Shown: positions 2,951-25,368, counted from the first letter of the stretch. The stretch is DNA of 25,368 nucleotides from Candidatus Doudnabacteria bacterium (GCA_023245895.1 JAHFJJ010000001.1:71621-96988), one strand, 5' to 3'. The notes: generated from the sequence alone by a model not told the origin. Program-made: numbers and translations.

Positions 2951-3919
2951 TTAGATTAAACCCCAAATTAATTTTGCCAATTTGTCCGAGTCATGGCGCA
3001 AAAAACTGCGCTTTAATTTGTCGCCGGCTTTCTTTTTTATTACTCCGTCAGACAATAAATCTTCGGCAATAGCCTCAACTTTGGTTTGGGCCAAGGCCTG
3101 AATGTCAGCTTCCACAAACTTTGCTTTTTCCGCTGAATACTTTTTCAAAATATCAGCTCCCGGTTTTTTGTTGTTTGCTAAAACAAGGTCTATTCTGCCA
3201 TTAAGGTATTTCTCCAAGGTCTTAACAAAATCAGAAGCCTTAAAACCATCTGTCTGGCCGAACTTGGTCATAATATTAGTGACAAGGATTTTTTTGGCTG
3301 GTGATTTATTTACCGCTTCGGCCACGCCTTTGACCAAAAGGCTGGGTAAAACGCTGGTAAACAAATCGCCCGGCCCAAAAATTATGGCATCGGCAGAATG
3401 TAGTGCCTTAAGAACTTTTGGATTGGCCGGCAAATTTGGTTTTAATCTTAAGTCTTTAATCTTTAATCTTGTGCGAGGTTCGTCTATATTATGTTCGCCA
3501 ATTACTTTTTTGCCGTTTTCTAAAAGAGCCATCAGAGTTGTAGGTTTCAATGTTACCGGCAAAACAGCCCCGCGGACATTAAGCAATTTGCCTGCCGCTT
3601 CCAGCGCCTGCTCGGGGTCGCCGGTAATTTTTTCCAGCGCGGCTAAAATTATGTTTCCCGCGGTGTGGCCTTCAAGCGAACCGGCAGTAAACCTGTAGGC
3701 AAAAAGCTGCTTGTAAATTTCATCGGTATAAGAAAGGCCAATTAAGCACTGCCGGTAGTCGCCGGGCGGTATAATGCCAAGTTCATACTTTAACCTGCCG
3801 CCGCTGCCGCCGTCGTCCGCGGTGGAAGCAATTACACTATTATTGGACGGATACTTCCTTAACCCCGACAGCAGGGTAAGCGTTCCCGTTCCCCCGCCGA
3901 TTATTACAATATTTTTCAT
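2951..3919 (-). CDS. YvcK/GlmR (UPF0052, CofD-like) family protein
   Basis: The N-terminal KNIVIIGGGTGTLTLLSGL and DDGGSGGRL motifs are typical of the YvcK/CofD family. The six-frame ORF extends to 3952 (TTG), but the ATG at 3919 just before the GGGTG motif is the more likely start. Confidence 0.8.
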   Translation of the reverse strand: MKNIVIIGGGTGTLTLLSGLRKYPSNNSVIASTADDGGSGGRLKYELGIIPPGDYRQCLIGLSYTDEIYKQLFAYRFTAGSLEGHTAGNIILAALEKITGDPEQALEAAGKLLNVRGAVLPVTLKPTTLMALLENGKKVIGEHNIDEPRTRLKIKDLRLKPNLPANPKVLKALHSADAIIFGPGDLFTSVLPSLLVKGVAEAVNKSPAKKILVTNIMTKFGQTDGFKASDFVKTLEKYLNGRIDLVLANNKKPGADILKKYSAEKAKFVEADIQALAQTKVEAIAEDLLSDGVIKKKAGDKLKRSFLRHDSDKLAKLIWGLI

Positions 3920-3947
3920 ATGTAGTGTTCTCAAATAAACAAATTTG

Positions 3948-4025
3948 GACAAATATACAAATCTTAATTATTTCCACAAATATACACAACCGACATTTGT
4001 ATATTTGTGTTGATTTGTATATTCG
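3948..4025. promoter_or_regulatory. cluster of four copies of the CAAATATACA half-site (two direct, two inverted): candidate operator/promoter for the yvcK-like operon
   Basis: Direct copies acaaatatacaa (3949-3960) and acaaatatacaca (3977-3989). Inverted copies tttgtatatttgtg (3996-4009) and tttgtatattcg (4014-4025). On the minus strand the cluster contains an extended -10-like TGTGTATATT. Confidence 0.35.
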
Positions 4026-9581: not shown

Positions 9582-10298
9582 TTAAGTTAATTTTAAAGTT
9601 TTAAATGCCTCGTAAACAATTCTTTGTGAGGAAATTTTTTCTAATATTAATATCTTTTCATCCATAAGCGGCACCGGGCCGACTGGATCAACAAAATCTT
9701 TCAAACTAAATTCACCTAGTGATATAGATTTAATATTATTATACTGTTCGTGATCCTTCCCCCCTACAAAACCAACGATTCTACTTTGATATTGATGCTT
9801 CCCAATGTGTACCGAAGCTTCTCGCGCTATCACTTCGGTATCTACAAAGTCTTTTTTCCTTATTTCGCTTTCAGGAACGGCTACATTGATGCCTGACTCA
9901 GTCTGTAAGTTTATTATGGCCACAGCTCCGGGAGAATCAAAATCTTGCCTGTTCATTTTCTTGAAAGCATAAGAAGCAGCATACATAGCTCCAACATATA
10001 GTGAATTCAGTAGAACCTTTTTATCTTCAGGTCTTTCAAAAAAAGTTGTGACCATTAATGATCTGTCCTCTGTAGTATCTGTTTCCAAAGCTTTTATATG
10101 ATTAATTGCTCTATTTGAAGCTCCATGAAACCCAAAAAACGGAATAGGCCCTTTTTCCATAATTTGTAAAAAAAGACTGTCATTTGTTTCCGCAATTTCC
10201 CTAAGTCTGTCAAGTTCTAAATTATTAATTTCCTCAACTGAAGGAAAATTAAAATCGGTTGGATTTTTTAAATCACTATAACCAATCCTTTCGGGCAT
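9582..10298 (-). CDS. hypothetical protein between the TrmB regulator and glmS
   Basis: 238-aa ORF with no recognisable motif. The gap to glmS is 9 nt and its start overlaps the TrmB stop region, so it is probably in the same operon. Confidence 0.55.
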   Translation of the reverse strand: MPERIGYSDLKNPTDFNFPSVEEINNLELDRLREIAETNDSLFLQIMEKGPIPFFGFHGASNRAINHIKALETDTTEDRSLMVTTFFERPEDKKVLLNSLYVGAMYAASYAFKKMNRQDFDSPGAVAIINLQTESGINVAVPESEIRKKDFVDTEVIAREASVHIGKHQYQSRIVGFVGGKDHEQYNNIKSISLGEFSLKDFVDPVGPVPLMDEKILILEKISSQRIVYEAFKTLKLT

Positions 10299-10301
10299 AA
10301 A

Positions 10302-11054
10302 TTATAATTTATTCCAATTAAATTCAAAAACTAACTTCTGCGTTTCATAAATTGCCTCGTTCTGGATTACCACGCCAACGGGATTTTCTTTTTCATCCAG
10401 CCCCAAATGCGCCACTTTGCCGGCATAAATTATTTCGTGCGTGGATTTTACGTCTTTGCCGCCGGTAGGCATTTTTTTCCTTTCGTCCAGCCCGGCCAAC
10501 TGCCCGCCTTCGCCCAAAGAAATAATTTTCACGCTGATTTTTTTTGCAATCCTCTTTTTACTAAAATCAGGAATGCCTTCGTAAACGTTTTTCCTGTCTT
10601 TTACGGTGGAGGATGAGTATAAATAATAAGTCTTATCGGTTATTTTAGCAACTTCTTCCAAGACGTCTTCCAAAATTAACTTGATCCCCTTCGCGCCTTC
10701 GTATAATTTAACCGTTGGCTTGCCGCCCTGCTTTTCAAATAAGGTTTTAATGAGCGGTAAACTTTGTTCAATATGCCCCCGCACCTCATCCAAGTCTTCT
10801 TTTTTTTGGTCAATGGCGCTTAATAACTTTTCCGGAGGTTCGGCAATAAAATACTGTTTGGATTCCTTATTATAGTAAGAAACAATTCCGGTGCTCATCA
10901 GCGACTTTAAAATATCATAAGCCGTCCCGCGGTTAACCTTGGACTTGGCCGATATATCCCTAACCGACGAAGGTCCAAGTTCTATCAATGCCAAATATAC
11001 AGAGATTTCCTTTTCCGATAACCCAAAATTCTTTAAAATTACCTGGATTTCCAT
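10302..11054 (-). CDS. TrmB-family (sugar-responsive) transcriptional regulator
   Basis: It has an N-terminal winged-HTH (LSEKEISVYLALIELGPSSVRDISAKSKVNRGTAYDILKSLMSTGIV) and a roughly 170-aa C-terminal TrmB-like effector domain. Confidence 0.78.
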   Translation of the reverse strand: MEIQVILKNFGLSEKEISVYLALIELGPSSVRDISAKSKVNRGTAYDILKSLMSTGIVSYYNKESKQYFIAEPPEKLLSAIDQKKEDLDEVRGHIEQSLPLIKTLFEKQGGKPTVKLYEGAKGIKLILEDVLEEVAKITDKTYYLYSSSTVKDRKNVYEGIPDFSKKRIAKKISVKIISLGEGGQLAGLDERKKMPTGGKDVKSTHEIIYAGKVAHLGLDEKENPVGVVIQNEAIYETQKLVFEFNWNKL

Positions 11055-12458: not shown

Positions 12459-12487
12459 TTGACAAGAGGCTATAAATATGCTAATAT
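12459..12487 (+). promoter_or_regulatory. sigma70-type promoter (TTGACA-17 nt-TAATAT) upstream of the giant surface protein gene
   Basis: TTGACA at 12459-12464, a 17-nt spacer, and TAATAT at 12482-12487. This gives a 5' UTR of about 140 nt before the GTG at 12630. Confidence 0.45.
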
Positions 12488-12629: not shown

Positions 12630-15600
12630 GTGAGAAACAATTCTAAAATAAAACACAATTTCAGAGCCGGGACTTTTAAAGTTTCATATAGTCCGTTTTT
12701 TAGATTAGGCCTGTTTTTAATGGTCTTTGTTATGCTGTTTCATATCAATCCACAGCAGGCCCAAGCAGCCAATTACACGTTTAGCCAATCCAGCTGGAGC
12801 GGTGGAACAACATCAAGCACAATGGTCCACCCGACTAACGAAACCGGCTGGACGCAGTATTCCACCAGTACCAATATTACCGCGGGCTCAACTATTACTC
12901 TCAATTCAAGCTTTGGAGCAGGCGGCTGGTACTCGACCGGAGGTACTTGGACTTACAGGAAAAAGATAACCATAGACCACACTAAAGTCAGCGGATCGAG
13001 CGCGCTGACTAATTTCCCAATGTTGTTTAACGTAACAGATTCGGATTTAAAATACACAGGCAGCGGAGGCGGGGTCGGCACTACATCTGGAAATGATATT
13101 TTATTTACTTCGTCAGACGGAACAACGCTTTTGAATTATGAAATAGAAAGCTACGCTTCCACTACCGGAGCTACCGCCGCCTGGGTTAATATTCCTTCCC
13201 TCTCCCCGACAACCGACACGACTATTTATATGTACTACGGTAATGCTTCAGCGGCGGCGGAAAGCGCCGGCAACATTACCGGCACTTGGGATTCCAATTT
13301 TAAAGGCGTATGGCACTTTCCCAGCACCACGACCTTGGGCGCTAATGATTCAACCAGCAACGCCAATAATGGATCTTCAACAACTACTACCGCCTCTACC
13401 GGCAAGATTGCTGGAAGCGCGAGTTTTAACGGCTCGGCTTTTATTTCCGTCGGCACCGGCTCGTCTTTGAATATTACTTCCCAGCCCGTTACTGTTTCAT
13501 CCTGGGTCAAACCAAGCAGCCAGCCTCCGACTTTCCAGATGATCTTTGATAAAGATGCTTCATACGCTTTTTTTCTCGACAGCAACAGCCCCCCAACAAA
13601 TTCTCTGGGGTTTAGGTCTAACATTAACGGGTCGATTGTTTACGCAAACAATAATATTATAACCACAGGCAGCTGGCAGCATGTAGCGGCAGTTTACGCT
13701 TCAAACACAGTTTCTTTTTACGTTAACGGCAGCCTGGCTTCAACCACAGCACTTTCAAACGCCTTTTCGTCTAACTCAAACGCGGCGGAAATTGGAAGGA
13801 GATTTACTAACGAACAGTTCTTTAATGGTGATATGGATGAAGTTAGGGTATCCTCTGCCGCCCGTTCCGCCGACTGGATTGCCACGGAATACGCCAACCA
13901 AAATTCGCCGTCAACTTTTCTTTCCGAAGCCTCGGCCGTAACTAATGTAAAAATGCTGGTTTCTTCGCCTTACGATTCCGGCAGTTCTAATAATATTTTA
14001 AACCAGGTTACCTGGACTGAAGATTCAACTTTGCCGGCCAATACTTCCGTGACCCTGGCCCTGCGCACGGGCAGTTCCACAACCACACTGGCCGCGGCAA
14101 GCTGGACCAATATTGCCACCAGCACGCCTTCCACCCTGACTTCCAACTGCAGCAAGGCTTCCGCGACAATTACCTGCAGCGCCGGCGCCATTGCCTCTTC
14201 TCTCAAAGACGGGTCCGGCGACGAATGGTTCCAGTACGCCGTAATTCTTAACAGCAGCGACGGAGTCTACACGCCCACAATTAGCGCGGTATCCGTGCAG
14301 TATGTGGTCAATGGCCCGCCGGATTTTAATTCCAACTACCCAACCGCCAGCGCCGGCGGAGTCTATGCTTACCAAAACGCGACCACCACAGACTCAAGTT
14401 TTGGCAAGGTAATAATCCAATACAGCGTTAGGGATACGGACTCAACCTCGGGCAACAGCACGCCCGGATATGTTACGCCTTCTTTCCAGTACAACATTGG
14501 CGGCAGCTGGACCAGCATAACTTCGGGCTACCTGGCATCTGGCGATTTGAACAACAAAGCCGTAAGCGAGTCCAGCTACACGACTTACCAGGCGACCTGG
14601 GACGCGAAAAGCCAAATCCCTACCAATTACCTGGCGACCGCGCAGGTAAGGGTGACTGTGAATGATAATGAGCTTGCGGGCAACACTGCCACACAAGCCT
14701 CAGCTAACTTTACCTTAGATACAACAAACCCTTCGGCCAGTATTCGTTTAGATGCCAGCAGCAACATAATTTATTCCACCTCAACCGACAGCAGCATTGT
14801 TTCATACTTGCTATCCAACAATTCCACCGGCACGCCCGATTCCTTAAATGCCATAAGCGGCATTTGGCAGTCTGCAAGCAGCACTTCGGTATCAACCTCT
14901 ACTGCCTGGACTTTTGCTTCAACCACTTATCCCACAGTCTACTTCCAGGCCCGCGACGCATACAATAACGGCGCCAGTACTACCGCGGTAGCCCCTTACG
15001 CGCCGACCAACATGGACATAAAAGATATTAGCAATACGGCTACAGGCGTGTACAGGGAATTTATTTCCTGGGGGGTTTATTCCGCAACTTCAAGCGCGGC
15101 CTTTTCCAAATATGAAATTTACCGTTCCACGGATGCCAGCAGCTATTCCCTGCTTAGCACAATTATTGACTCCTCCCTTAATTACTACGCCGACTCGGCG
15201 GTGGCCACTAGCAGCACTTATTACTACAAAATAAGAACGGTAGATACCGACACTGACAACTCCCCCTATTCTTCGGTTGTCAGCGATAAACCGGACGGCC
15301 AGGGCGGGACAGACATAACTGCCCCAACCATAAGCTCGGTAACCGTGGCGCAAACCCAGTCAACCTGGGCAACCATTACCTGGACCACGGATGAGCTGTC
15401 CAACTCCACGGTAGGATATTCCACGACTGCGGGCAGCTGGACATCAAGCCAGTCCTCAACCTCATTTTTGCTTAGCCATTCGGTGACAGTCTCCGGGCTT
15501 TTGCCAAATACCACCTACTACTTTAGGGTCCAGTCCTCGGACATTGTGGGCAACACGGCTACTGACAACAACGGCGGCAACGGATACAGTTTTACAACTG

Positions 15601-17591
15601 CCGGCGGTCCGACTATTTCCAATACCAGCGTTTCCGCGCAGGCCACCGGCGCTTCCATAACCTGGAATACGGACCGCAGTTCTGACTCCTACGTATATTA
15701 CTCCACCAATTCCAACCTTAGCTCGCCGCAAGTAGCCGGTAACGCGGCTTTGGTGTCAACAAGTTCAACTCCTTCAGTATTCCAGCATAGAGTCGACCTA
15801 ACAGGCTTGTCCGCGGCCACAACTTATTATTTCTACGTTAAATCCACGGACGGCAACAGCAATTCTTCCACGGACACCAATAACGGCAGTTACTATTCTT
15901 TCCGAACCGTGCTCGATACCCAGGCGCCGGTTATTTCGGGAATTTCAACGCCGGTAATTTCATCCACGGCCGCGGTAGTAGTATGGACTACGGACGAGCC
16001 GGCTACTTCAAGAGTTTCCCTGGGCACGGCTACCGGCAGCTACTCAACCAGCACTCCCGTTGACTCCACCTTAACCATAACCCATGTGGTCGCGCTCTCC
16101 GGTTTAACCGCCTCAACCAAATATTATTTCGTGGCCACTTCCCAGGACCAGGCGGGTAACTCCACCACCTCGGCCGAAAACACTTTTACTTCCGCCGATG
16201 CCAACGATATAATTTATATAGGCAGCGGGGGCGCGAGTGCCGGAGGCACAACCTCCGATATTACCCCGCCTGTCATTAGCAGCATTAAAACAGGAACGAC
16301 CACAGCCTTTAGCGTGACGGTTAGCTTCTCTACCAACGAATCGGCTGTTGGAATTGTTCAGTACGGGACTAGCGACAAATACGGCCAGTCAGGCGCTGAA
16401 TCAAGCTTTACTTCCACCCACAACATTAGCCTTACCGGCCTGCGCATGGGAACCAAATATCATTTTAAAGTTGTCGCCCTGGACAAAGCCGGCAACGAGG
16501 CTGATTCTGTAGACGGAACCTTTGAAACACAATTCTTGAGCGATGACTTAAGCAGCATAAATATCGATGACTTATACCAGTACCAGGAAGAAATTGAAAA
16601 CCAAATTGAATCAATCCTTCCCTCTATAGTCCCGCCGTTTATCGGCAAAGTAGCCATAAGTAACGTAAGCCAGGATTCAGCCGACATTTCCTGGCAGACT
16701 AACCTGAAAGCCTACTCCTCGGTTCAGTACGCTTCTGAAAACGACTACAATAAAGACAGCGAAAAGCCGTACCCAAGCGAAAGCGGCGACATTACCACCA
16801 AAGCCACCAACCATAGCCTAACTTTAACCGGGCTGACTCCCAACACCGTTTACCATTTTCGCGTTAAAGCCTACACCCTGCCCAAAGCCTCAAGCTCAAG
16901 CAAAGATATTTCTTTTACCACCAAGGCCGAGGATATTAAAGCCCACATTGCCGAGGTAAAAATCGATTCCTTCCGGGTGGTTTGGAGTACTGCAGACGCT
17001 TCAGATGCGGTAGTGGAATATAAAAATTTGAGCAACGGGCAGGTTAACCGTAAAGTAGATGAGCAAAAAAAGATTTTCCATGAAGTCACAATAGACAAAT
17101 TACCGTCCGGAACGACTTTTTTGGTAAAAGTTTCCAGCATCAACAATAAAGGCAACTTAACTGAAAATAAAGTGCCGCTTAAGGTAACTACCGGCACGGA
17201 CAACAACGCCCCCACAATTTCAGGACTGAAAATAGAAAGCACTTTGGTGCCGGGTAAACAAGACAAAGTCAGCACTTTAATCCGCTGGAACACGGATGAA
17301 CCGGCCAGTTCGGCTGTCTACTACGAAGAAGGCAGCGGCGCCCCTACCAACCAACACCTGGCCAATAAGGCTGTAGGCGACCAAAATGCTTTTGTAACCG
17401 ACCATGTGGTAGTGCTCGGCTCGCTGAAAGCCGGAGCTATTTACCGCATCCAGGTTGAATCCAGCGACTCGGCCGGCAACCTTACTGCGCCGACTATAAA
17501 AACCATTGTCGTGCCAAGACAAAGCCAATCGGTAACTGATATTATCTTTAAAAACTTTGAAGATTCCTTTAAGTTCCTAAACACGAAATAA
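12630..17591 (+). CDS. giant secreted/cell-surface protein: signal peptide, DUF2341-like domain, LamG/ConA-like lectin domain, Ig-like region, then about seven FN3/PAP-N-like repeats
   Basis: 1653 aa with a GTG start. It has a Sec-type signal (K/R-rich n-region, LGLFLMVFVMLF, AQA|AN). Residues 108-215 resemble DUF2341 (WTYRKKITIDHTKV...TTIYMYYGN). Residues 245-430 resemble LamG (WQHVAAVY...SFYVNGSL...FNGDMDEVRVSSAARSADWI). It has repeated ITWTTDE..S.V.Y....YYFRV.S.D..GN modules, an S/T/N-rich composition and many N-x-S/T sequons. Minus-strand ORFs inside it are spurious. Confidence 0.9.
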   Translation: MRNNSKIKHNFRAGTFKVSYSPFFRLGLFLMVFVMLFHINPQQAQAANYTFSQSSWSGGTTSSTMVHPTNETGWTQYSTSTNITAGSTITLNSSFGAGGWYSTGGTWTYRKKITIDHTKVSGSSALTNFPMLFNVTDSDLKYTGSGGGVGTTSGNDILFTSSDGTTLLNYEIESYASTTGATAAWVNIPSLSPTTDTTIYMYYGNASAAAESAGNITGTWDSNFKGVWHFPSTTTLGANDSTSNANNGSSTTTTASTGKIAGSASFNGSAFISVGTGSSLNITSQPVTVSSWVKPSSQPPTFQMIFDKDASYAFFLDSNSPPTNSLGFRSNINGSIVYANNNIITTGSWQHVAAVYASNTVSFYVNGSLASTTALSNAFSSNSNAAEIGRRFTNEQFFNGDMDEVRVSSAARSADWIATEYANQNSPSTFLSEASAVTNVKMLVSSPYDSGSSNNILNQVTWTEDSTLPANTSVTLALRTGSSTTTLAAASWTNIATSTPSTLTSNCSKASATITCSAGAIASSLKDGSGDEWFQYAVILNSSDGVYTPTISAVSVQYVVNGPPDFNSNYPTASAGGVYAYQNATTTDSSFGKVIIQYSVRDTDSTSGNSTPGYVTPSFQYNIGGSWTSITSGYLASGDLNNKAVSESSYTTYQATWDAKSQIPTNYLATAQVRVTVNDNELAGNTATQASANFTLDTTNPSASIRLDASSNIIYSTSTDSSIVSYLLSNNSTGTPDSLNAISGIWQSASSTSVSTSTAWTFASTTYPTVYFQARDAYNNGASTTAVAPYAPTNMDIKDISNTATGVYREFISWGVYSATSSAAFSKYEIYRSTDASSYSLLSTIIDSSLNYYADSAVATSSTYYYKIRTVDTDTDNSPYSSVVSDKPDGQGGTDITAPTISSVTVAQTQSTWATITWTTDELSNSTVGYSTTAGSWTSSQSSTSFLLSHSVTVSGLLPNTTYYFRVQSSDIVGNTATDNNGGNGYSFTTAGGPTISNTSVSAQATGASITWNTDRSSDSYVYYSTNSNLSSPQVAGNAALVSTSSTPSVFQHRVDLTGLSAATTYYFYVKSTDGNSNSSTDTNNGSYYSFRTVLDTQAPVISGISTPVISSTAAVVVWTTDEPATSRVSLGTATGSYSTSTPVDSTLTITHVVALSGLTASTKYYFVATSQDQAGNSTTSAENTFTSADANDIIYIGSGGASAGGTTSDITPPVISSIKTGTTTAFSVTVSFSTNESAVGIVQYGTSDKYGQSGAESSFTSTHNISLTGLRMGTKYHFKVVALDKAGNEADSVDGTFETQFLSDDLSSINIDDLYQYQEEIENQIESILPSIVPPFIGKVAISNVSQDSADISWQTNLKAYSSVQYASENDYNKDSEKPYPSESGDITTKATNHSLTLTGLTPNTVYHFRVKAYTLPKASSSSKDISFTTKAEDIKAHIAEVKIDSFRVVWSTADASDAVVEYKNLSNGQVNRKVDEQKKIFHEVTIDKLPSGTTFLVKVSSINNKGNLTENKVPLKVTTGTDNNAPTISGLKIESTLVPGKQDKVSTLIRWNTDEPASSAVYYEEGSGAPTNQHLANKAVGDQNAFVTDHVVVLGSLKAGAIYRIQVESSDSAGNLTAPTIKTIVVPRQSQSVTDIIFKNFEDSFKFLNTK

Positions 17592-17691: not shown

Positions 17692-18126
17692 ATGAAACAA
17701 ATAAAAATTTTGATGGTGGACGAAAATGAAATTATGCGGTTTTACTTCCGCGACTCTTTCTGGCTGCATAGCGAACGGGACGAGTATGAATTGAGGTTTG
17801 CCAGTGATTTTGTCCAGGCACAGCAGATATTGCGGGAACCGGAAACATTTTTTGACATTATATTCCTGGATTTAGTTTTGCATATTACCCACAAAAACCG
17901 CTTGGTTCTGGACCCGGAAGCGGGCCTAAAGCTAATTGCCCAAATCCGCTCCATGCCTAAATTTAAAAATACCAAAATAGTAGTATTTTCTTCCAAGCAA
18001 TATTTCCATTTGTGGAAAAAAGCCAAAAAGCTGGGCGCTAACTTTTTCCTTAAAAGCGAAGAATACCTGCCCCGTTACCTGGTAAAATGGGTAGAAAAAA
18101 TCTTTAAAGAGAAATCCGCGCAATGA
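17692..18126 (+). CDS. stand-alone CheY-like receiver-domain protein (single-domain response regulator)
   Basis: 144 aa with the receiver signature positions: an acidic pair (VDEN), the phospho-acceptor Asp (IIFLDLVL), S (VVFSS) and K (FFLKS). It has no output domain. Its stop overlaps the ATPase start (ATGA). Confidence 0.75.
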   Translation: MKQIKILMVDENEIMRFYFRDSFWLHSERDEYELRFASDFVQAQQILREPETFFDIIFLDLVLHITHKNRLVLDPEAGLKLIAQIRSMPKFKNTKIVVFSSKQYFHLWKKAKKLGANFFLKSEEYLPRYLVKWVEKIFKEKSAQ

Positions 18127-19433
18127 ACACAATAATAGAATTAAAGCACGTCAATTTTTGGTACGACCGCGGCAAACCCACGGAAATGCAGGCTTTGCAC
18201 GACATTAATTTACAAATTGGCCAGGGAGAATATGTGGCTTTTTTCGGCCCTTCCGGCAGCGGCAAAACCACCCTGCTGTATTTGCTTTCAGGAACGGAAA
18301 TGTCCCAGGAAGGCGAAGTTATGGTCAACGGCAAAGACATTAGCAAACTGTCCAAAAGAGAAATGGCCATTTACCGGCAAATCGGGGTGGGCATGGTTTT
18401 CCAGCAGTTCAACCTTATTCCCAATTTAACCATACTGGAGAATGTCGGCTTGCCCATGGCTTTTTTAGGCGTTGGCGAAGACAAAAGAATAAAAGAAGCC
18501 AAGCTGCTGCTGGAACGGCTTAACCTGTCTGCCCTTGCCAAACGTTTTCCATATGAACTTTCCGGCGGACAGCAACAGAGAGTCGGCATAGCGCGCGCGC
18601 TGGCCAACAATGCGCCGATTATTGTCGCCGATGAGCCTATTGGCAACCTGGATTCCACCAACGCCAACAACGTGCTGGATTTTTTAAAGGAACTTTGTGA
18701 AAAGGACGGCAAAACTGTGGTTATGGTTACCCACGAAGCCTGGAGCTTAAGAGACGCCAAAAAAATCTTTTACCTGAAAGACGGCGTGGTGGAAAAAGTT
18801 GAAACCAACCACGCCAAACCGGCAACGCAAATCCTGGCGGAACAGCTATATAAACAAACAGCTCCCAAGCGGGCGCAGGAGTCCAAAGAACGGGCGGTGG
18901 CCAGCACCCTGGCCAATGTGCTTTTTCGCGGTTTTTCGGCTGAAGAAAACATGCGTTTCAGCGACTTTCTAACACAGCGCTTAACGGGACAAGTGGACCA
19001 GGTACAATTCCTAGAATTGCTCTATAAGCCTTTCCGCGAGGGCGGCGGAGGTTTGTGGAAAAAACGGGCGCTGGAAACCTCGCGCTACGTTGAAGGGATT
19101 ATCCAGGAGCATATGGACGTGGAAGGAATATGCCTGGAGCTGGAAAAAAATCCAACGGCTCCCCTGCTTCACGAAATTGGCAGTTTAATGGAATGGCTTT
19201 TAGACAGGAATAAAATCCGGCTGGATCAGCTACAGGAAAGCCGCTTCCGCCAAGTTACCACAGAAGTCCTCCGCAACGCTATTAAGCTGGAAGCCTTTAA
19301 AGAAGCGCTGTATTTGCCAAAGTCAAAACTGGGCGTGGGGCTGTCGCATAGGACAACTGAAAGAATTTATGAAAAATTTAAACTTGCTTTGGGTAATTTT
19401 GAACTTGAACCGCTCTCGCCTGAAAAAGCCTAA
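18123..19433 (+). CDS. MacB/LolD-type ABC transporter ATP-binding protein with a roughly 200-aa C-terminal extension of unknown function
   Basis: It has Walker A (GPSGSGKTT), the ABC signature (LSGGQQQRVGIARAL), Walker B (IIVADEPIGNLD) and an H-loop (VTHE). Residues from about 230 to 436 have no recognisable motif. Confidence 0.88.
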   Translation: MNTIIELKHVNFWYDRGKPTEMQALHDINLQIGQGEYVAFFGPSGSGKTTLLYLLSGTEMSQEGEVMVNGKDISKLSKREMAIYRQIGVGMVFQQFNLIPNLTILENVGLPMAFLGVGEDKRIKEAKLLLERLNLSALAKRFPYELSGGQQQRVGIARALANNAPIIVADEPIGNLDSTNANNVLDFLKELCEKDGKTVVMVTHEAWSLRDAKKIFYLKDGVVEKVETNHAKPATQILAEQLYKQTAPKRAQESKERAVASTLANVLFRGFSAEENMRFSDFLTQRLTGQVDQVQFLELLYKPFREGGGGLWKKRALETSRYVEGIIQEHMDVEGICLELEKNPTAPLLHEIGSLMEWLLDRNKIRLDQLQESRFRQVTTEVLRNAIKLEAFKEALYLPKSKLGVGLSHRTTERIYEKFKLALGNFELEPLSPEKA

Positions 19434-20968: not shown

Positions 20969-20976
20969 ATCATATA

Positions 20977-21094
20977 GCGGGCAGCCGCCTACTTTTGCGC
21001 ATACATGCGTATGACTATCATTGGCCCGTGCGTGTTTTACTACTGAGTTCGGGATGGGATCAGGTAGGACCACGCTGGAAATGCCACCCTCGTC
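20977..21094 (-). rRNA. rrf: 5S ribosomal RNA
   Basis: The minus strand reads ...GUGGUCCUACCUGAUCCCAUCCCGAACUCAGUAGUAAAACACGCA..., matching the conserved 5S core (GGUCCCACCUGACCCCAUGCCGAACUCAGAAGUGAAAC). Terminal helix I pairs GAGGGUGGC with GCUGCCCGC. Confidence 0.8.
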
Positions 21095-21303
21095 GTACTT
21101 TATTCCGTGATTGGAGAATAAAAAACAAAGAGGGGGACACTTAGATCACTTATTATGGCTTAATTGCATTTACTGTGCCTTGAGTAAGGACGAAAAATCC
21201 GGCTGTTACTAAAAATATAATTAAAATAACCGCAAAAACCTTTAAGTGATGCTTCATTATAAGGGGGTAAATAAATTGTTATTGTACTGTTATGAACATT
21301 GTA

Positions 21304-21331
21304 CTATCCGCCTTCGCTAAAGCTTCGGCGG
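21304..21331. repeat. copy of the short palindromic core element (atccgcc-N14-ggcggat with loop cgctaaagct) in the 23S-5S spacer
   Basis: It has a 7-bp perfect stem atccgcc/ggcggat and a 14-nt loop ttcgctaaagcttc. The kbl insertion has the same stem and loop length and shares the 10-nt loop core cgctaaagct, in the opposite orientation. Confidence 0.45.
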
Positions 21332-21717
21332 ATGACTCTCTACTAAATAAATTATAGTGAGTCACAAATTGCTAGTCAATAGAAATAGAATTAAAATTTT
21401 CGGTTGATTAGTATTGCTCGGCTGAACACATTACTGTGCTTACACCTGCAACCTATAAAACGAGTGGTCAGTGATTAGTGTTTAGTGATTAGTATTGCTA
21501 CTATCCACTGCCCACTGCACACTATCCACTAGTTATGATACGGGGTAGTCTTCCCCGAACCTTTATTATGTATTGCTACATAAAACGAAACCTAGTTTCT
21601 TGGACGGCTTCACGCTTATATGCATTCAGCGCTTATCCTAACTAGACCTAGCTACCCCGCCATGCCGCGGACGCGACAACGGGTACACCAGAGGTCTATG
21701 CATCCCGGTCCTCTCGT

Positions 21718-22569
21718 CACATATTCTTCTGTCACCAGAAGTGCAGACTATATCTTCATCCTATCTTATACCTTAGGCTCCTGGGCCATAGTATTTTTTT
21801 ATGATAGGTGTCGGCGTATTATAGAAATAGTAGAAAGTATAAAGTTGAAAGTTTAAAGTAACTGCAATTGCAGTCCTTTTCACTTTCTACTTTTAACTTT
21901 TAACTACCTTCCATCTCCTCTTTCGAGTCAGTCGTTACGGGGTCAAACCTAAAATCTTAAATAATTCAAGTCCGGTTTTCTTTTTCCGAGTTGCGTAGTT
22001 ATTATTTTGAATTATTGTTATACAGCTTATAATTTTCCTGAGTTCAGATTGCGTAAAATTAGCAATCTTTTTCCCTTCCAGAATTCCGGCTGCTTTATAC
22101 AAAGCCGCAGCTTGTTGCTTCTTAAAACGTATAAATGGAATTAAATCTTTAAGAATGTTTTTAATTTGAGTCACCCCGTTTATACGAAGTTCGCTCATTC
22201 CGTCATTTCTGCGGGATAAGTACCCAATGCCTAAAACTTTCTTAATCCAGAAAAGTTCTGCTTCATGGCGGCTATCCTGATAAAAACAGATAGTGCACAT
22301 AAAACGAACTTTTTTCTTTCCATCTTTGCGCTTTTTGATTTGCAACATTAAGCTGCCGTCTCCGTCTAAAAAGCCGGCAATATAAGCTAAATCAATTTTA
22401 GATCGACTTCCCACGGTATTGTCTTAATATTCTTGGTCCTCAAGTAAATTGTACCATAACTGAAGAACCGTTACAATTATGGTTATCAACGGATGCAAAA
22501 TATATTAAGATTTCACCGTTATTAGCCGAATTTTCAAGGCAGATTACTCTGCCAAGTAGCAAACCCTTT
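21718..22569 (-). other. intron (group I-like, 852 nt) inserted in the 23S sarcin-ricin loop (E. coli U2656/A2657 equivalent)
   Basis: The 5' exon ends ...GCGCAUCCCUAGU (22570). The 3' exon starts ACGAGAGGACCGGGAU (21717). Joined, they restore the universal SRL CCUAGUACGAGAGGACC closed by the AUCCC/GGGAU stem. The intron starts with A after an exonic U and ends in G. Confidence 0.7.
21935..22414 (-). CDS. LAGLIDADG homing endonuclease (single-motif) encoded in the SRL intron
   Basis: It has the LAYIAGFLDGDGS motif near its N-terminus. It is 159 aa with a GTG start, and lies entirely within the intron. Confidence 0.85.
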   Translation of the reverse strand: MGSRSKIDLAYIAGFLDGDGSLMLQIKKRKDGKKKVRFMCTICFYQDSRHEAELFWIKKVLGIGYLSRRNDGMSELRINGVTQIKNILKDLIPFIRFKKQQAAALYKAAGILEGKKIANFTQSELRKIISCITIIQNNNYATRKKKTGLELFKILGLTP

Positions 22570-22699
22570 ACTAGGGATGCGCCCAATCAAGTTTCGAACA
22601 CCCACAGCAGATAAGGACCAAACTGTCTCACGACGTTTTGAACCCAGCTCGCGTACCACTTTAATATGCGAACAGCATAACCCTTGGGAGCTTCTTCAC

Positions 22700-22738
<39 letters not shown>

Positions 22739-23308
22739 TCTCGTCGATGTGGACTCTTGGAGAGGATCAGCCTGTTATCCCTAGAGTAACTTTTATCCGT
22801 TGGGCTTTGCGTCTTCCACTCGAACGCATCGGATCACTAACTTCCACTTTCGTGCCTGCGCGGGTCGCCGCCCTTGCAGTCAAGCATGCTTATGCGTTTG
22901 CACTATCAGCATGATTTCCATCCATGCCTAGCATACCTTAATAAACGCCTCCGTTACCATTTAGGAGGCAACCGCCCCAGTTAAACTACCCACGAGCCAC
23001 TGTCCCAAAGTAGGTTAGACTTTGGTTAGAATTAATATTTTTACAGAGTGGTATTTCACCTTTTGCCTCCATTTGAGCTGGCGCCCAAACTTCAAAGGCT
23101 CCCACCTAGGCTAAACAATAAAAGCATTAATTCAATGACACGCTATAGTAAAGCTTCATAGGGTCTTTCCGTCTTGCTGCGGGTAGACGGCATCTTTACC
23201 GCCACTGTAAGTTCATCGGAATGTTCGTTAAGACAGTTCTCTGCTCGTTATGCCATTCGTGCGGGTCGCAACTTACGCGACAAGGAATTTCGCTACCATA
23301 GGACAGTT

Positions 23309-24044
23309 CATAATGTTAGCTTCATGTTTCCATGAAGTTCAGACTATATCATTCCATCAATTGGATGGATTCGGCGTTTAGTCGTTGAGGGTTTTTACTA
23401 AATGATTCTTTAAAATTTGTTAAATTATGCTTTCGAGTTCTACCTTTTCCTTCATTTAAGTCCTCACGAAGTTTTACTATTTCTAGCAACCCTTCCTGAT
23501 TTAAATGTTGGCTTGCAAAAACTAATCTTGCAATTTTAGAGAATAACGAATAGTTTCTTTTTTTACTAGCGGACAAGAAACCGAACCGGTCAAAGAAAGG
23601 AATTATTTTTTCTTTGAGTGCTGTATGATTTTGGACAATATATTGATGCACGCCATCTTTCCTATGGTCAATGCGACCACAGCCTAAATGATGCTTCAAC
23701 AAAGCAAGTACGGTAATGTCTTTTTGAGCAACATTAAACGTTAATATTACTTGCCATAATACTTTACTGTCGTTTCGTTTACGAAGGGAAACATTAAAGC
23801 TTCCTTCTCCGTCTACAAAACCTGCAAAGTAATTTCCAATTTCAACAGGAATTTGCTTTAACCAATTTTGATCCATAAAGTTTCCTTCTGAATCTTTTAG
23901 TAAATCTTCCCTGCGGATTGACTGTATCTTGTAAATTTTTACTGTCAATTTAATGACGAGTATTACAAGCTTTAAGCACATCAAAGTCCTTTGTGTGCAC
24001 AGTTATTCCCGCAAATAGCCAAATTTTATAACTACAACATGTTC
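23309..24044 (-). other. group I-like intron (736 nt) in 23S helix 69 at the L1917-equivalent site
   Basis: The 5' exon ends ...GGCAGUAACUAU (U at 24045). The 3' exon starts AACUGUCCUAUGGUAGCGAAAUUCC (23308). Joined, they give the H69 loop UAACUAUAAC. The intron ends in G. The junction can slide by 3-4 nt because of the local repeat gaac...gaac. Confidence 0.65.
23349..23984 (-). CDS. LAGLIDADG homing endonuclease (single-motif) encoded in the L1917 intron
   Basis: It has the NYFAGFVDGEGSF motif. The likely true start is the internal Met at 23876 (MDQNWLKQIPVEIGNYFAGF...). The longer N-terminal extension probably reads through intron core sequence. Confidence 0.85.
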   Translation of the reverse strand: MMCLKLVILVIKLTVKIYKIQSIRREDLLKDSEGNFMDQNWLKQIPVEIGNYFAGFVDGEGSFNVSLRKRNDSKVLWQVILTFNVAQKDITVLALLKHHLGCGRIDHRKDGVHQYIVQNHTALKEKIIPFFDRFGFLSASKKRNYSLFSKIARLVFASQHLNQEGLLEIVKLREDLNEGKGRTRKHNLTNFKESFSKNPQRLNAESIQLME

Positions 24045-24814
24045 ATAGTTACTGCCGGCGTTCATCAGGGCTTGGCCGATCGGCTTGCGCCAACCGGTTT
24101 AACCTTCTGACACTGGCCAGGCATCAGCCCGTATACATCAGCTTGCGCTTTAGCACGGACCTAAGTTTTTGGTAAACAGTCGGAGGAGATCTTTCGCTGC
24201 GGCCCTGTACCATTCATTCGCTTACGCGAATTCAGGTGCAGGGCAAGGTATATACCGAAGGTACACCTGCTTTTTTGCCGAGTTCCTTAACGAACATTGG
24301 TCCGGACGCCTTGGGATTCTCTCCCCATCCACCTGTGTCGGTTTACGGTACGAGCACTTTATAACATGACTTCGACGCTTTTCTTGACACCTTGATTCAC
24401 ACTAATCTCCGTTGCCAGATTTTTTTATGCTTTCGAGATTACAATCGCATCAACCATCTCTTGCGAGGTAAGCTGATGTAATATAGGAACTCCGGATTTA
24501 CCTAAAGTTCCACCCTACGAGCACAACAACGCCAATAGTCAGATGACGCTAATGTTATCATGATGCGTCCCGCCTAAGATAATTATAAAGCGGTTATGGA
24601 ATATCAACCATATTTTCCATCGGGTGAACCCCTTGGGGCCCACTCTTAGGATCGACTAACCCAGGGACGACGATCGTTGCCCTGGAAACCTTGGATATTC
24701 GGCGAAGAGGATTCTCACCTCTATATATATTACTTATTCCAACATTCTTACTTGTACACTGTCCACGGCCGCTTACGCATACCGCTTCAGCCTGTGTACA
24801 ACACTCCTCTACCA

Positions 24815-24927
24815 CTTATGCGAAGCATAAGAACAATTAACTTTTAACAATTAACAATTGACCGGCTGCAGACTGCAGTAGTTAATCGTTAATCGTTAAT
24901 TGTTACCAGTTTTTATGCTTCGCATAA
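24815..24927 (-). repeat. 113-nt hairpin expansion segment in 23S (replacing the short helix after the GTPase-associated centre), built of tandem 7-10-nt repeats
   Basis: The base palindromes are cttatgcgaagcataag and tttatgcttcgcataaa. Tandem aacaattaac copies pair with tandem gttaatc copies around the central palindrome ctgcagactgcag. E. coli has only GCGGCAGCGACGCUUAUGCGUUGUUGGGUAG at this position. Confidence 0.5.
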
Positions 24928-25010
24928 ATCCACGTCTTCGGCACCTAGCTTAGCCCCTATATATTGTCGGCGCAGGATCGCTTGACCAGTGAGCTGTTAC
25001 GCTTTCTTTA

Positions 25011-25047
<37 letters not shown>

Positions 25048-25368
25048 GGGCAATCCCACATCCTTTGCACTATAGCTAGGATTTGGGGGCCTTAGACGGT
25101 GGTGTGGATTCTTCTCCATTTGTCTCGTGAAGCTTAGACCTCACGGACTGACTGCCAATTTCTTGACCTTTAGAATTCGGAGTTTGGTTGGAGCCTACCG
25201 CTTGCGCAGCAGGTTTCCATTCAGTGCTCTACCTCTAAAGGGAACAATTGACGCTAGCCCTAAAGCTATTTCGAGGAGAACCAGCTATCACCCGGTTCGA
25301 TTGGAATTTCTCCCCTACGCACAGCTCATCCCCTATTTTTGCAGCAATAGTGGGTTCGGACCTCCCGT

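Follow-up and report, generated by a model that had tools for sequence, protein, structure and literature searches.

What a very large secreted protein does at the surface of a Patescibacteria (Candidate Phyla Radiation, CPR) cell, and how it is held there, is the question raised by a giant gene at 12630-17591 (+) in the DNA of Candidatus Doudnabacteria bacterium given above. The window, that is, the whole stretch of DNA that was analysed, comprises 25,368 nucleotides (nt). Host recognition and holding in CPR/Patescibacteria are largely obscure beyond type IV pili. The product of the giant gene is read here as a Sec-exported, fibrillar cell-surface protein of such a bacterium. The most informative features of the locus are a conserved C-terminal motif, an architecture of variable head and constant stalk, and an operon shared with a putative ABC (ATP-binding cassette) transporter of type VII; all three were absent from the original prediction, which had been made from the DNA alone. 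The whole reading, in which protein and transporter form one coupled machine, is tentative and is put at a little under an even chance.

Gene product and domain architecture

One unbroken frame of 1653 amino acids (aa) is present at the place where it had been predicted. The public copy of the protein (P0001, NCBI, 1623 aa) begins at Met31 (nt 12720). Comparison with homologues favours the GTG at 12630 as the better start, because the start at Met31 drops the basic n-region while homologues keep a full signal peptide. The mature protein has 1607 aa (~170 kDa), is acidic (pI 4.7) and consists of Ser and Thr to ~30%. The gene and its parts were assigned as listed. Model confidence is given as the predicted local distance difference test score (pLDDT).

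12459-12487, + strand: best sigma-70-like promoter match, TTGACA-17-TAATAT with TG, ~145 nt 5' of the start codon; a match to the consensus only, at 10/12 positions
12630-17591, + strand: open reading frame (ORF) of the giant gene, uninterrupted, 1653 codons
12630-12767, + strand: signal peptide, aa 1-46, with GTG start, basic n-region, hydrophobic core FFRLGLFLMVFVMLF and cleavage between AQA and AN
12768-12941, + strand: mature N-terminal cap, aa 47-104, ANYTFSQSSWSGG...; motif common to family members with different heads; model pLDDT <50
12942-13304, + strand: DUF2341 beta-sandwich, aa ~105-225, PF10102; pLDDT 90-98
13305-13937, + strand: LamG/concanavalin-A-like lectin jelly roll, aa ~226-436, ending in a conserved DEVRxS...RSxDWIxTEYxNQ helix
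13938-14309, + strand: middle beta domain, aa ~437-560, …WFQYAVILNSSDG.YTPTISAVSVQY; family-conserved, without a Pfam model; pLDDT 50-60
14310-16529, + strand: stalk part 1, aa 561-1300, with 2-3 Ig-like domains without a model name, 1 classical fn3 domain and 4 FN3 domains of the Pur_ac_phosph_N (PAP-N) type
16530-16646, + strand: acidic helical linker within the stalk, aa ~1301-1339, …DDLYQYQEEIENQIESILPSIVPPF; helix at stalk-model residues 135-149; conserved in the closest relative, P0002
16647-17525, + strand: stalk part 2, three FN3 domains, aa 1340-1632; pLDDT 90-96
17526-17591, + strand: C-terminal tail, aa 1633-1653 plus stop codon, PRQSQSVTDIIFKNFEDSFKFLNTK; 17-residue helix at the very C-terminus

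Eleven Pfam families were matched in a scan of the giant protein with curated cut-offs, and no catalytic domain was among them. Both N-terminal domains named in the original prediction were recovered: DUF2341 (PF10102) scored 51.5 bits against a cut-off of 23.4 (aa 154-219), and Laminin_G_3 (PF13385) scored 98.1 bits against 27.6 (aa 278-418). For Laminin_G_3, a score above threshold and a jelly-roll fold were both found. About seven FN3/PAP-N modules had been expected, which was roughly right, with ~8 FN3-type domains recognised by sequence and model. These gave 128 bits for Pur_ac_phosph_N (6 stretches) and 84.9 bits for fn3 (3 stretches), all above the curated cut-offs. A purple acid phosphatase was considered and rejected; no metallophos match was obtained and only the non-catalytic N-domain type is present. 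The predicted signal peptide was likewise found to be of the Sec type with an AxA site. Its layout is shared by homologues, in which the residues A-T-Y-T-F-T-Q-x-x-W-S-G-G follow the cleavage site.

The head was modelled from aa 47 to 570 with an alignment of 29 sequences. Confidence was high over DUF2341 and LamG (pLDDT 90-98) and poor over the first 52 residues of the model and the middle domain. The DUF2341 sandwich is predicted to pack against the LamG jelly roll as an N-terminal head. In fold searches with this model the LamG half dominated the matches; its structural neighbours are carbohydrate-binding modules, toxin receptor-binding lectin domains, pentraxins and the heparin-binding thrombospondin N-domain. 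A solved homologue of DUF2341 was not found by profile search, solved relatives being obtained only for the LamG half. The two domains form a fixed unit of ~340 residues that is repeated 2-11 times in proteins elsewhere. Judging by source names, such proteins come from several bacterial and archaeal phyla, in line with the recurrent pairing that had been claimed.

The stalk consists of about eleven Ig/FN3-like domains broken by one short acidic helix. Domain linkers of the form AP.IS lie in stalk part 1 at aa 898, 1099 and 1213. A second model, from aa 1181 to 1653, comprises four FN3 sandwiches (pLDDT 90+), the linker helix and a terminal helix. The strands at stalk-model residues 36-119 form the fourth PAP-N-type domain, and the short, acidic linker helix lies between the fourth and fifth. 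Stalk part 2 is the most conserved region of the family, with the signature [VI]Q[TA][IV][IV][SR]W[KN]T[DN]. The tail helix occupies stalk-model residues 455-471 (pLDDT ~60).

The C-terminus had been described as free of a transmembrane (TM) segment and of a sortase signal. This stands, as no TM segment was found past aa 60, but the conserved C-terminal helix motif had been overlooked. PEP motif, lipobox and C-terminal LPXTG were not found in the giant protein, in which the lone loose match, LPKAS, is internal (aa 1417). Anchoring by sortase, PEP-CTERM or lipoprotein modification was rejected, as neither a C-terminal anchor motif, a lipobox nor a C-terminal TM segment was found.

Family members: conserved stalk and tail, variable head

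Among full-length relatives, the best ones (35-47% identity) match the window protein in the middle domain, along the entire FN3 stalk, in the linker and in the C-terminal sequence. In the closest of them (P0002; 47% identity over 73% of the query), DUF2341-LamG is replaced by Kelch-like repeats and a discoidin domain; other relatives carry one, two or three DUF2341-LamG units. For a family scan, the C-terminal 215 residues were searched against one genome per species (GTDB representatives). Matches were obtained at 107 places (best match, 49% identity) and 80 loci were fetched; single loci are given below by L numbers.

The family C-terminal motif, ...TP[RK]xxES[IV]xD[VI]I[IFV]KNFExTF[GK][FW]..., was present in 84/84 family ORFs examined; after it come 0-8 residues, most of them basic. 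A single Phe never varies, and Ile, Ser, Asn and the final W/F hardly do. The tail helix is modestly amphipathic (hydrophobic moment, muH, 0.36 vs 0.21 +/- 0.11 in shuffles). The window protein falls within the family as defined by the terminal FN3 signature followed by ES[IV]xD[VI]I..NF...F[GK][FW], at most ~10 residues from the C-terminus. A curated model for the tail was found in neither NCBIfam nor Pfam; the NCBIfam model MXAN_2561 matched weakly, below its cut-off, and inside the stalk.

The heads of family members comprise two LamG domains, Kelch, RCC1 and LVIVD propellers, discoidin, Fib_succ_major and ALK-type glycine-rich domains, and several are without a Pfam match. The cap motif A-[TN]-Y-T-F-[TS]-Q-x-x-W-S-G-G (12768-12810 in the window) was also seen in L003, L006, L010, L012-L014, L017, L039, L044 and L057. 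In the alignment of family members, the bearers of this motif carry otherwise unrelated heads. Both ends of the protein are thus kept, and what is exchanged lies between cap and stalk. The family keeps its stalk, its C-terminal helix and its first mature residues, and swaps its head. One stalk and tail with many heads is a natural candidate for determinants of host range.

When 1.84 billion representative sequences were searched exhaustively, 2,580 clusters were obtained at E ≤ 1e-30. This is an upper bound for the family, because the search also collects unrelated multi-FN3 proteins. The tail stood at the extreme C-terminus in at least 70 of the top 146 representatives; those bearing it have a median length of 2,350 aa, the longest reaching 6,321 aa. 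The remaining top representatives were unrelated multi-FN3 proteins, some with C-termini that by eye resemble sorting domains of the type IX secretion system (T9SS). A profile of the C-terminal alignment, run against a word-indexed database, yielded no more than 21 short fragments.

Many of the bins carry automated taxon labels. Patescibacteria-type labels were attached to 57 of the 80 loci and 'bacterium' only to 10. The other 13 were labelled 'Gammaproteobacteria' (10), 'Bdellovibrionales' (2) and 'Thermoplasmata' (1), and come from automated bins or a 1.4-kb contig. Three of these 13 loci have tails near-identical to tails from named CPR genomes (L044 to L039; L059 and L065 to L079), and L034 has exactly the tail of L035; all 13 labels are probably mislabelling. 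Labels of homologues include Wolfebacteria, Nomurabacteria, Kaiserbacteria, Taylorbacteria, Buchananbacteria, Falkowbacteria, Moranbacteria, Shapirobacteria, Paceibacterota and bins labelled Saccharibacteria. All informatively labelled stalk homologues are Patescibacteria, and the small-genome episymbiont setting of the original prediction is reasonable. By these labels, the family of FN3 stalk and tail looks restricted to Patescibacteria.

A short subfamily (~640-710 aa) has the same terminal FN3 domain and a variant tail, …ESII.IIM.ILE.TFGWMKK.. (L031, L032, L036, L045, L048, L058, L060, L062, L066, L067 and L072). Its genes do not stand beside a transporter.

Association with a MacB/FtsX-type transporter

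Three genes follow the giant gene on the same strand.

17692-18126, + strand: stand-alone receiver (CheY-like) protein, 144 aa; Response_reg 30.0 bits, just under the cut-off of 30.2
18123-19433, + strand: ABC ATPase, 436 aa; MacB/LolD/FtsE-like nucleotide-binding domain (NBD), aa 1-225, plus C-terminal extension; ABC_tran 121.7 bits
19604-20809, + strand: permease of the MacB_PCD plus FtsX type, 401 aa from ATG; PF12704 40.9 bits, PF02687 68.7 bits; the ORF opens at TTG 19538

The stop codon of the receiver gene overlaps the start of the ATPase gene by 4 nt. The receiver gene was found at the same position in 11 loci and is part of the module only in a subset of loci. A terminator-like site was not found between the giant gene and the three downstream genes, and the four genes are predicted to form one operon.

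The association is conserved beyond the window. The 1.2 Mb of loci contain 41 MacB_PCD/FtsX permeases, and for 39 of these the giant gene is no more than 3 kb away. Over the 80 loci, a transporter on the strand of the giant gene was located downstream in 32 cases and upstream in 4; in 2 more it is upstream but on the opposite strand, and in 1 it overlaps. Loci with a flank of at least 3 kb on both sides were taken as fully flanked; the transporter adjoins the giant gene in 19 of the 31 such loci, and in 16/23 where the giant has at least 1000 aa. The distance from the stop codon of the giant gene to the next module gene has a median of ~24 nt (≤50 nt in 22/36 loci), and 4-nt overlaps occur in some. 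Gene order itself differs, being giant-receiver-ATPase-permease in L003 and ATPase-permease-giant in L001 and a JGI contig, and the other flanking genes vary between loci. In a reverse test, three ATPase homologues were chosen for their long contigs; in two cases a giant FN3 gene lies directly upstream, its stop codon overlapping the start of the ATPase gene.

Two full copies of tail protein, extended ATPase and permease (52-54% identity each) were found on two contigs of the Nomurabacteria metagenome-assembled genome CALRDB01 (L064, L081). This suggests that the three-gene module was duplicated as a unit, if the bin is not chimeric. Distances between giant C-termini and those between permease extracytoplasmic domains were compared by mirror-tree and partial Mantel tests (r = 0.83, and 0.47 as a partial coefficient once the NBD is controlled for, p = 0.0005), which demonstrates co-inheritance and is at best weak evidence of co-evolution.

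Judged by their sequences, the neighbouring ATPase and permease make up a type VII (MacB/FtsX-type) ABC transporter with a large predicted extracytoplasmic domain. The closest solved chains of the permease are YtrF, MacB, LolC/E and FtsX. None of the NCBIfam equivalog cut-offs for FtsE, LolD, MacB, LolC/E and FtsX was reached by the transporter of the window. An FtsEX complex was rejected (FtsE 195.8 bits vs 264.85; FtsX models 25-43 vs 225-255), as was LolCDE (LolD 190 bits vs 307.75; lolCE 50 vs 362). In a Wolfebacteria-related genome (L084/L085; 1039-2681 and 9474-12556), receiver, ATPase and permease genes were observed between L10/L12 and mraZ without an adjoining giant gene. The same genome has a canonical pair of FtsE and FtsX (FtsX_ECD) 8 kb upstream of these genes. 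True FtsEX thus coexists with the module, which is therefore not the FtsEX of cell division.

The extension of the ATPase (aa 226-436, 18798-19433) comprises ~210 residues, is helical and has no Pfam or NCBIfam match. Its sequence is kept in 38 loci, and over 120 Patescibacteria proteins share it with 50-58% identity. By eye it consists of two tandem repeats of ~90 residues, each ending like a helix-turn-helix.

Base composition, codon usage and sequons

The giant gene had been called GC-rich, partly through its Ser/Thr/Ala/Gly codons, and possibly acquired by horizontal transfer. It is indeed richer in GC (0.494 vs 0.443 for the window). About 3 of the 5 GC points come from composition, since a GC content of 0.475 is expected from its own amino acids and the codon usage of its neighbours. 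The excess lies in codon position 2 (GC2 0.518 vs 0.24-0.40 in the other 16 protein genes) because of Ser/Thr/Ala/Gly/Pro codons, and GC1 is below that of the neighbours. At position 3 the gene (GC3 0.552) resembles those for GAPDH (0.549), the ABC ATPase (0.546) and the permease (0.546), and a GC3 of 0.557 is expected from the codon usage of GAPDH, GlmS, ADH, ATPase and permease.

Synonymous-codon divergence was measured against the 16 other genes of the window with length-matched nulls. For the giant gene z = 10 was obtained with an effect of 0.030 nats per codon; it is the length of the gene that makes the test formally significant. Native neighbours span a range that includes this effect (aminotransferase 0.028, ATPase 0.040, TrmB-like 0.044, 207-aa ORF 0.060). 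The true compositional outlier of the window is a 238-aa ORF at 9582-10298 (-), with GC3 0.257 vs ~0.47, divergence 0.121 and z = 6. It has no Pfam match, adjoins a TrmB-like regulator gene (10302-11054) and diverges fourfold more than the giant gene. By tRNA and Pfam scans, no tRNA, integrase, transposase or other mobile-element gene was found nearby in the window. The comparison of GC3 and codon usage with the flanking genes thus gave no foreign signature, and whole-gene acquisition is unsupported because of native-like GC3, small effect size and the lack of flanking tRNA, integrase or transposase genes. In blocks of 150 codons, the head (codons 2-451) had a GC3 of 0.47-0.49 and the central stalk (452-1201) one of 0.56-0.63, with 0.51-0.54 for the C-terminal third. 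Such unevenness might reflect exchange of the head by recombination, or the codon preference of Ser/Thr-rich repeats.

Dozens of N-x-S/T sequons had also been pointed out. Their number is right (36), but it is at chance level (32.8 +/- 4.7 in global and local shuffles of the protein, z = 0.7). The bacterial sequon D/E-x-N-x-S/T does not occur in the giant protein. Library scans of the window proteins found no oligosaccharyltransferase (STT3/PglB) and no glycosyltransferase family. The hint of N-glycosylation is not upheld by these results, and a PglB-type N-glycoprotein was rejected for want of extended sequons, of N-x-S/T enrichment and of STT3/PglB in the window. In Ser/Thr-rich proteins, high GC and many N-x-S/T should not be taken as signs of transfer or glycosylation.

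Proposed mechanism and alternative explanations

Functional coupling of the lectin-headed adhesin fibril to the mechanotransmitting type VII transporter is proposed as the favoured reading, one judged possible though slightly more apt to be wrong than right. The head would recognise a host cell or substrate by binding a glycan or other ligand at its surface, and the stalk would project this head roughly 40-50 nm from the cell (an estimate from about eleven domains of 3.5-4 nm plus the head). The C-terminal helix would dock on the extracytoplasmic domain of the permease, or on the membrane beside it, and hold the fibril at the surface. If the conserved C-terminal helix is the docking element, the variable head would point away from the cell. 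Receiver protein and ATPase extension may gate ATP hydrolysis, and mechanical transmission across the membrane may anchor, tension, reposition, deploy or release the fibril, much as FtsEX, LolCDE and YbbAP work on extracytoplasmic partners of their own. Head diversity would tune target specificity. The role in host or surface attachment that had been suggested before is plausible, the predicted LamG fold being structurally nearest to carbohydrate-binding modules and toxin receptor-binding lectins. Operon membership with a mechanotransmitting transporter and a receiver leads to the hypothesis of a regulated, energy-dependent deployment or release of an adhesin.

Evidence for contact between the C-terminus of the fibril and the permease is indirect, comprising gene neighbourhood, apparent co-duplication and co-divergence. 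Several observations weigh against coupling. The transporter is more than 10 kb away or missing in ~40% of the fully flanked loci, and a whole Moranbacteria-like group as well as the close relatives L005 and L017 are without a nearby transporter. The third ATPase of the reverse test (Wolfebacteria) belongs to a receiver-ATPase-permease module without a giant gene. The mirror-tree evidence is weak because shared phylogeny is not fully removed. The tail helix is modelled with moderate confidence only (pLDDT ~60) and is modestly amphipathic. Ligand binding by the head is suggested by similarity of the modelled fold, and the DUF2341 half is without a characterised relative. The geometry would reverse if the conserved N-terminal segment were proximal to the cell.

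The protein may instead be an ordinary adhesin or S-layer-like protein whose tail rests on the membrane or wall, the transporter being co-transcribed but otherwise unrelated (peptide or antimicrobial efflux, lipid extraction). Its domain content is typical of adhesins, and Patescibacteria proteins with FN3, ConA-like or DUF2341 domains have already been reported as putative adhesins (PMC11809585, PMC13059738). This explanation is kept alive because 12/31 fully flanked loci have no transporter neighbour; the receiver-ATPase-permease module can stand alone beside L10/L12 and mraZ, and the tail helix is partly amphipathic. Penicillin-binding proteins of the PBP5 type bind the membrane by just such a C-terminal amphipathic helix. 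Adjacency is far above chance, however, with 39/41 permeases within 3 kb, and it outlasts changes of gene order and deep divergence with gaps near zero. The three genes were apparently duplicated as a unit, and the invariant or near-invariant S, N, F, G and W/F of the tail are better suited to a specific contact with a protein than to membrane binding of a generic kind. An uncoupled adhesin is considered rather unlikely. Export of the giant protein by the transporter, with the C-terminal motif as secretion signal, would explain the position of the motif at the extreme C-terminus and the operon shared with an ABC system. Elsewhere, giant adhesins leave the cell through an ABC transporter encoded alongside them; type I secretion of RTX/LapA adhesins is an example. 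Export is nevertheless improbable, since the giant protein and most relatives have an N-terminal Sec signal with an AxA site, and since the transporter is of the MacB/FtsX type, which handles substrates already outside the cytoplasm, and not of the HlyB type. Neither RTX repeats nor a membrane-fusion or outer-membrane component turned up in scans of the window, and a type I secretion substrate of the RTX/LapA kind was accordingly rejected.

A place of the protein at the tip of a type IV pilus-like filament, or as its accessory adhesin, would follow the COG/arCOG annotation of DUF2341. Archaeal type IV pilus loci encode proteins with this domain, for which a role as tip adhesins was proposed (PMC4858521), the domain has been annotated in this way in Patescibacteria giants (PMC11809585), and type IV pili drive episymbiosis in Saccharibacteria (PMC11623550). 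The signal peptide is, however, of the Sec type with an AxA site and not of class III (prepilin); genes for pilin, PilB/C/T or prepilin peptidase were found neither in the window nor in those homologous loci that were examined, and the stalk bears many other heads besides DUF2341-LamG, so that a pilus role is quite improbable. The reading of the original prediction, a horizontally acquired foreign gene with N-glycosylation at N-x-S/T sequons, can point to the elevated GC (0.494 vs 0.443), to a detectable difference in codon usage (0.030 nats per codon, z = 10), to GC3 that is uneven along the gene, and to DUF2341-LamG modules 45-48% identical to its own in unrelated architectures across phyla, by which the head could have been exchanged. 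It is very improbable for the gene as a whole: the excess is one of codon position 2, native genes have the same GC3 (0.552), which also agrees with the expected 0.557, and the effect size is that of several native neighbours and fourfold below that of ORF 9582-10298. Flanking tRNA, integrase and transposase genes are missing, stalk, tail and operon are typical of the lineage, and 36 sequons stand against 32.8 +/- 4.7 expected, none of them of the form D/E-x-N-x-S/T.

Coupling of fibril and transporter can be extended to a machine of the whole phylum, in which a type VII ABC transporter with a receiver-gated, extended ATPase holds a giant fibril by its conserved C-terminal helix and mechanically actuates it, the exchangeable head setting the target. 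This wider proposal is speculative and considered unlikely. If true, it would describe an ATP-driven, signal-controlled device to attach and release in episymbiosis, of which the gene of the window encodes the DUF2341-LamG-headed version.

Other features of the window

The rRNA region occupies 20976-25368 (-), with 5S rRNA at 20976-21091 and 23S rRNA at 22523-25368, the latter cut by the window end. The 23S gene is interrupted by a LAGLIDADG ORF (23349-23984) with a sub-threshold group I intron match (23320-23528). Between 5S and the 23S 3' end as reported, there is another LAGLIDADG ORF (21935-22414), accompanied by a group-I-like match (21725-21858); the real 23S 3' end may therefore be further downstream than the model alignment. 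Insertions of introns and endonucleases are common in CPR rRNA genes. A gene of the CofD/YvcK family (2951-3952, -; PF01933, 300 bits) is clustered with genes for GlmS, a class I/II aminotransferase, a nucleotidyltransferase and a GNAT acetyltransferase, which may be a small cluster for sugar-nucleotide or cell-envelope precursors.

Comparison with known systems

Giant surface proteins with FN3, ConA-like, DUF2341 or FhaB domains were described from Patescibacterium danicum and Absconditicoccaceae, with a proposed role in host contact (PMC11809585, PMC13059738). They share with the window protein the phylum-level lineage, very large size, a signal peptide and adhesion-type domains including DUF2341 and FN3. 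Unlike for the family of the window, the reports give domain content only and no full-length homologues. Giant adhesin-like proteins of Patescibacteria are thus already known, while the predicted tail motif, head swapping and extended-ATPase operon were not found described. Nor was the combination of a constant stalk and tail with swapped heads, a C-terminal motif and a type VII ABC operon found in the literature covered, which did not include subscription journals.

Context has tied DUF2341 to archaeal type IV pili and also to MotA/ExbB-like stator proteins (PMC4858521, PMC12505986). The domain is shared with these proteins, in which it is attached to envelope machines, whereas pilus and stator genes are missing from the window. 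Relatives of the LamG domain are domain 4 of AbnA (5hon), CBM40, the HCN lectin-like domain of clostridial neurotoxins and the pentraxins. Here, unlike in these modules, the jelly roll is fused to DUF2341 as a fixed unit of ~340 residues, and the likeness is one of fold only.

Like RTX/LapA adhesins, the window protein is giant and repetitive, bears its presumed ligand-binding region on a long stalk of Ig-like domains, ends in a conserved C-terminal element and is encoded together with an ABC transporter. It differs from them by its Sec signal and the lack of RTX repeats, and its locus is without a HlyB-type ABC protein, membrane-fusion protein or outer-membrane channel. The organism of the window is presumably monoderm.

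Type VII ABC transporters move no substrate across the cytoplasmic membrane; ATP drives movements of their large extracytoplasmic domain, which acts on a partner outside (PMC12646458, PMC7668044). Known transporter-partner systems are FtsEX-EnvC/PcsB/CwlO, LolCDE-LolA, MacAB-TolC, YbbAP-TesA and YtrEF (PMC12646458, PMC7668044, PMC8060467). The system of the window resembles them in its permease of MacB_PCD and FtsX type, its FtsE/LolD/MacB-like ATPase and its position beside an extracytoplasmic protein with helical elements. It differs in the C-terminal extension of ~210 residues in the ATPase and, often, in a receiver gene in front. The candidate partner is an adhesin-like fibril of 1,500-6,000 residues and not a hydrolase activator, chaperone or adaptor. 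Should the link be true, the C-terminal motif would be a simple signature for finding such proteins in metagenomes, and the fibril would be a fifth kind of type VII partner, beside hydrolase activators, lipoprotein chaperones, efflux adaptors and lipid hydrolases.

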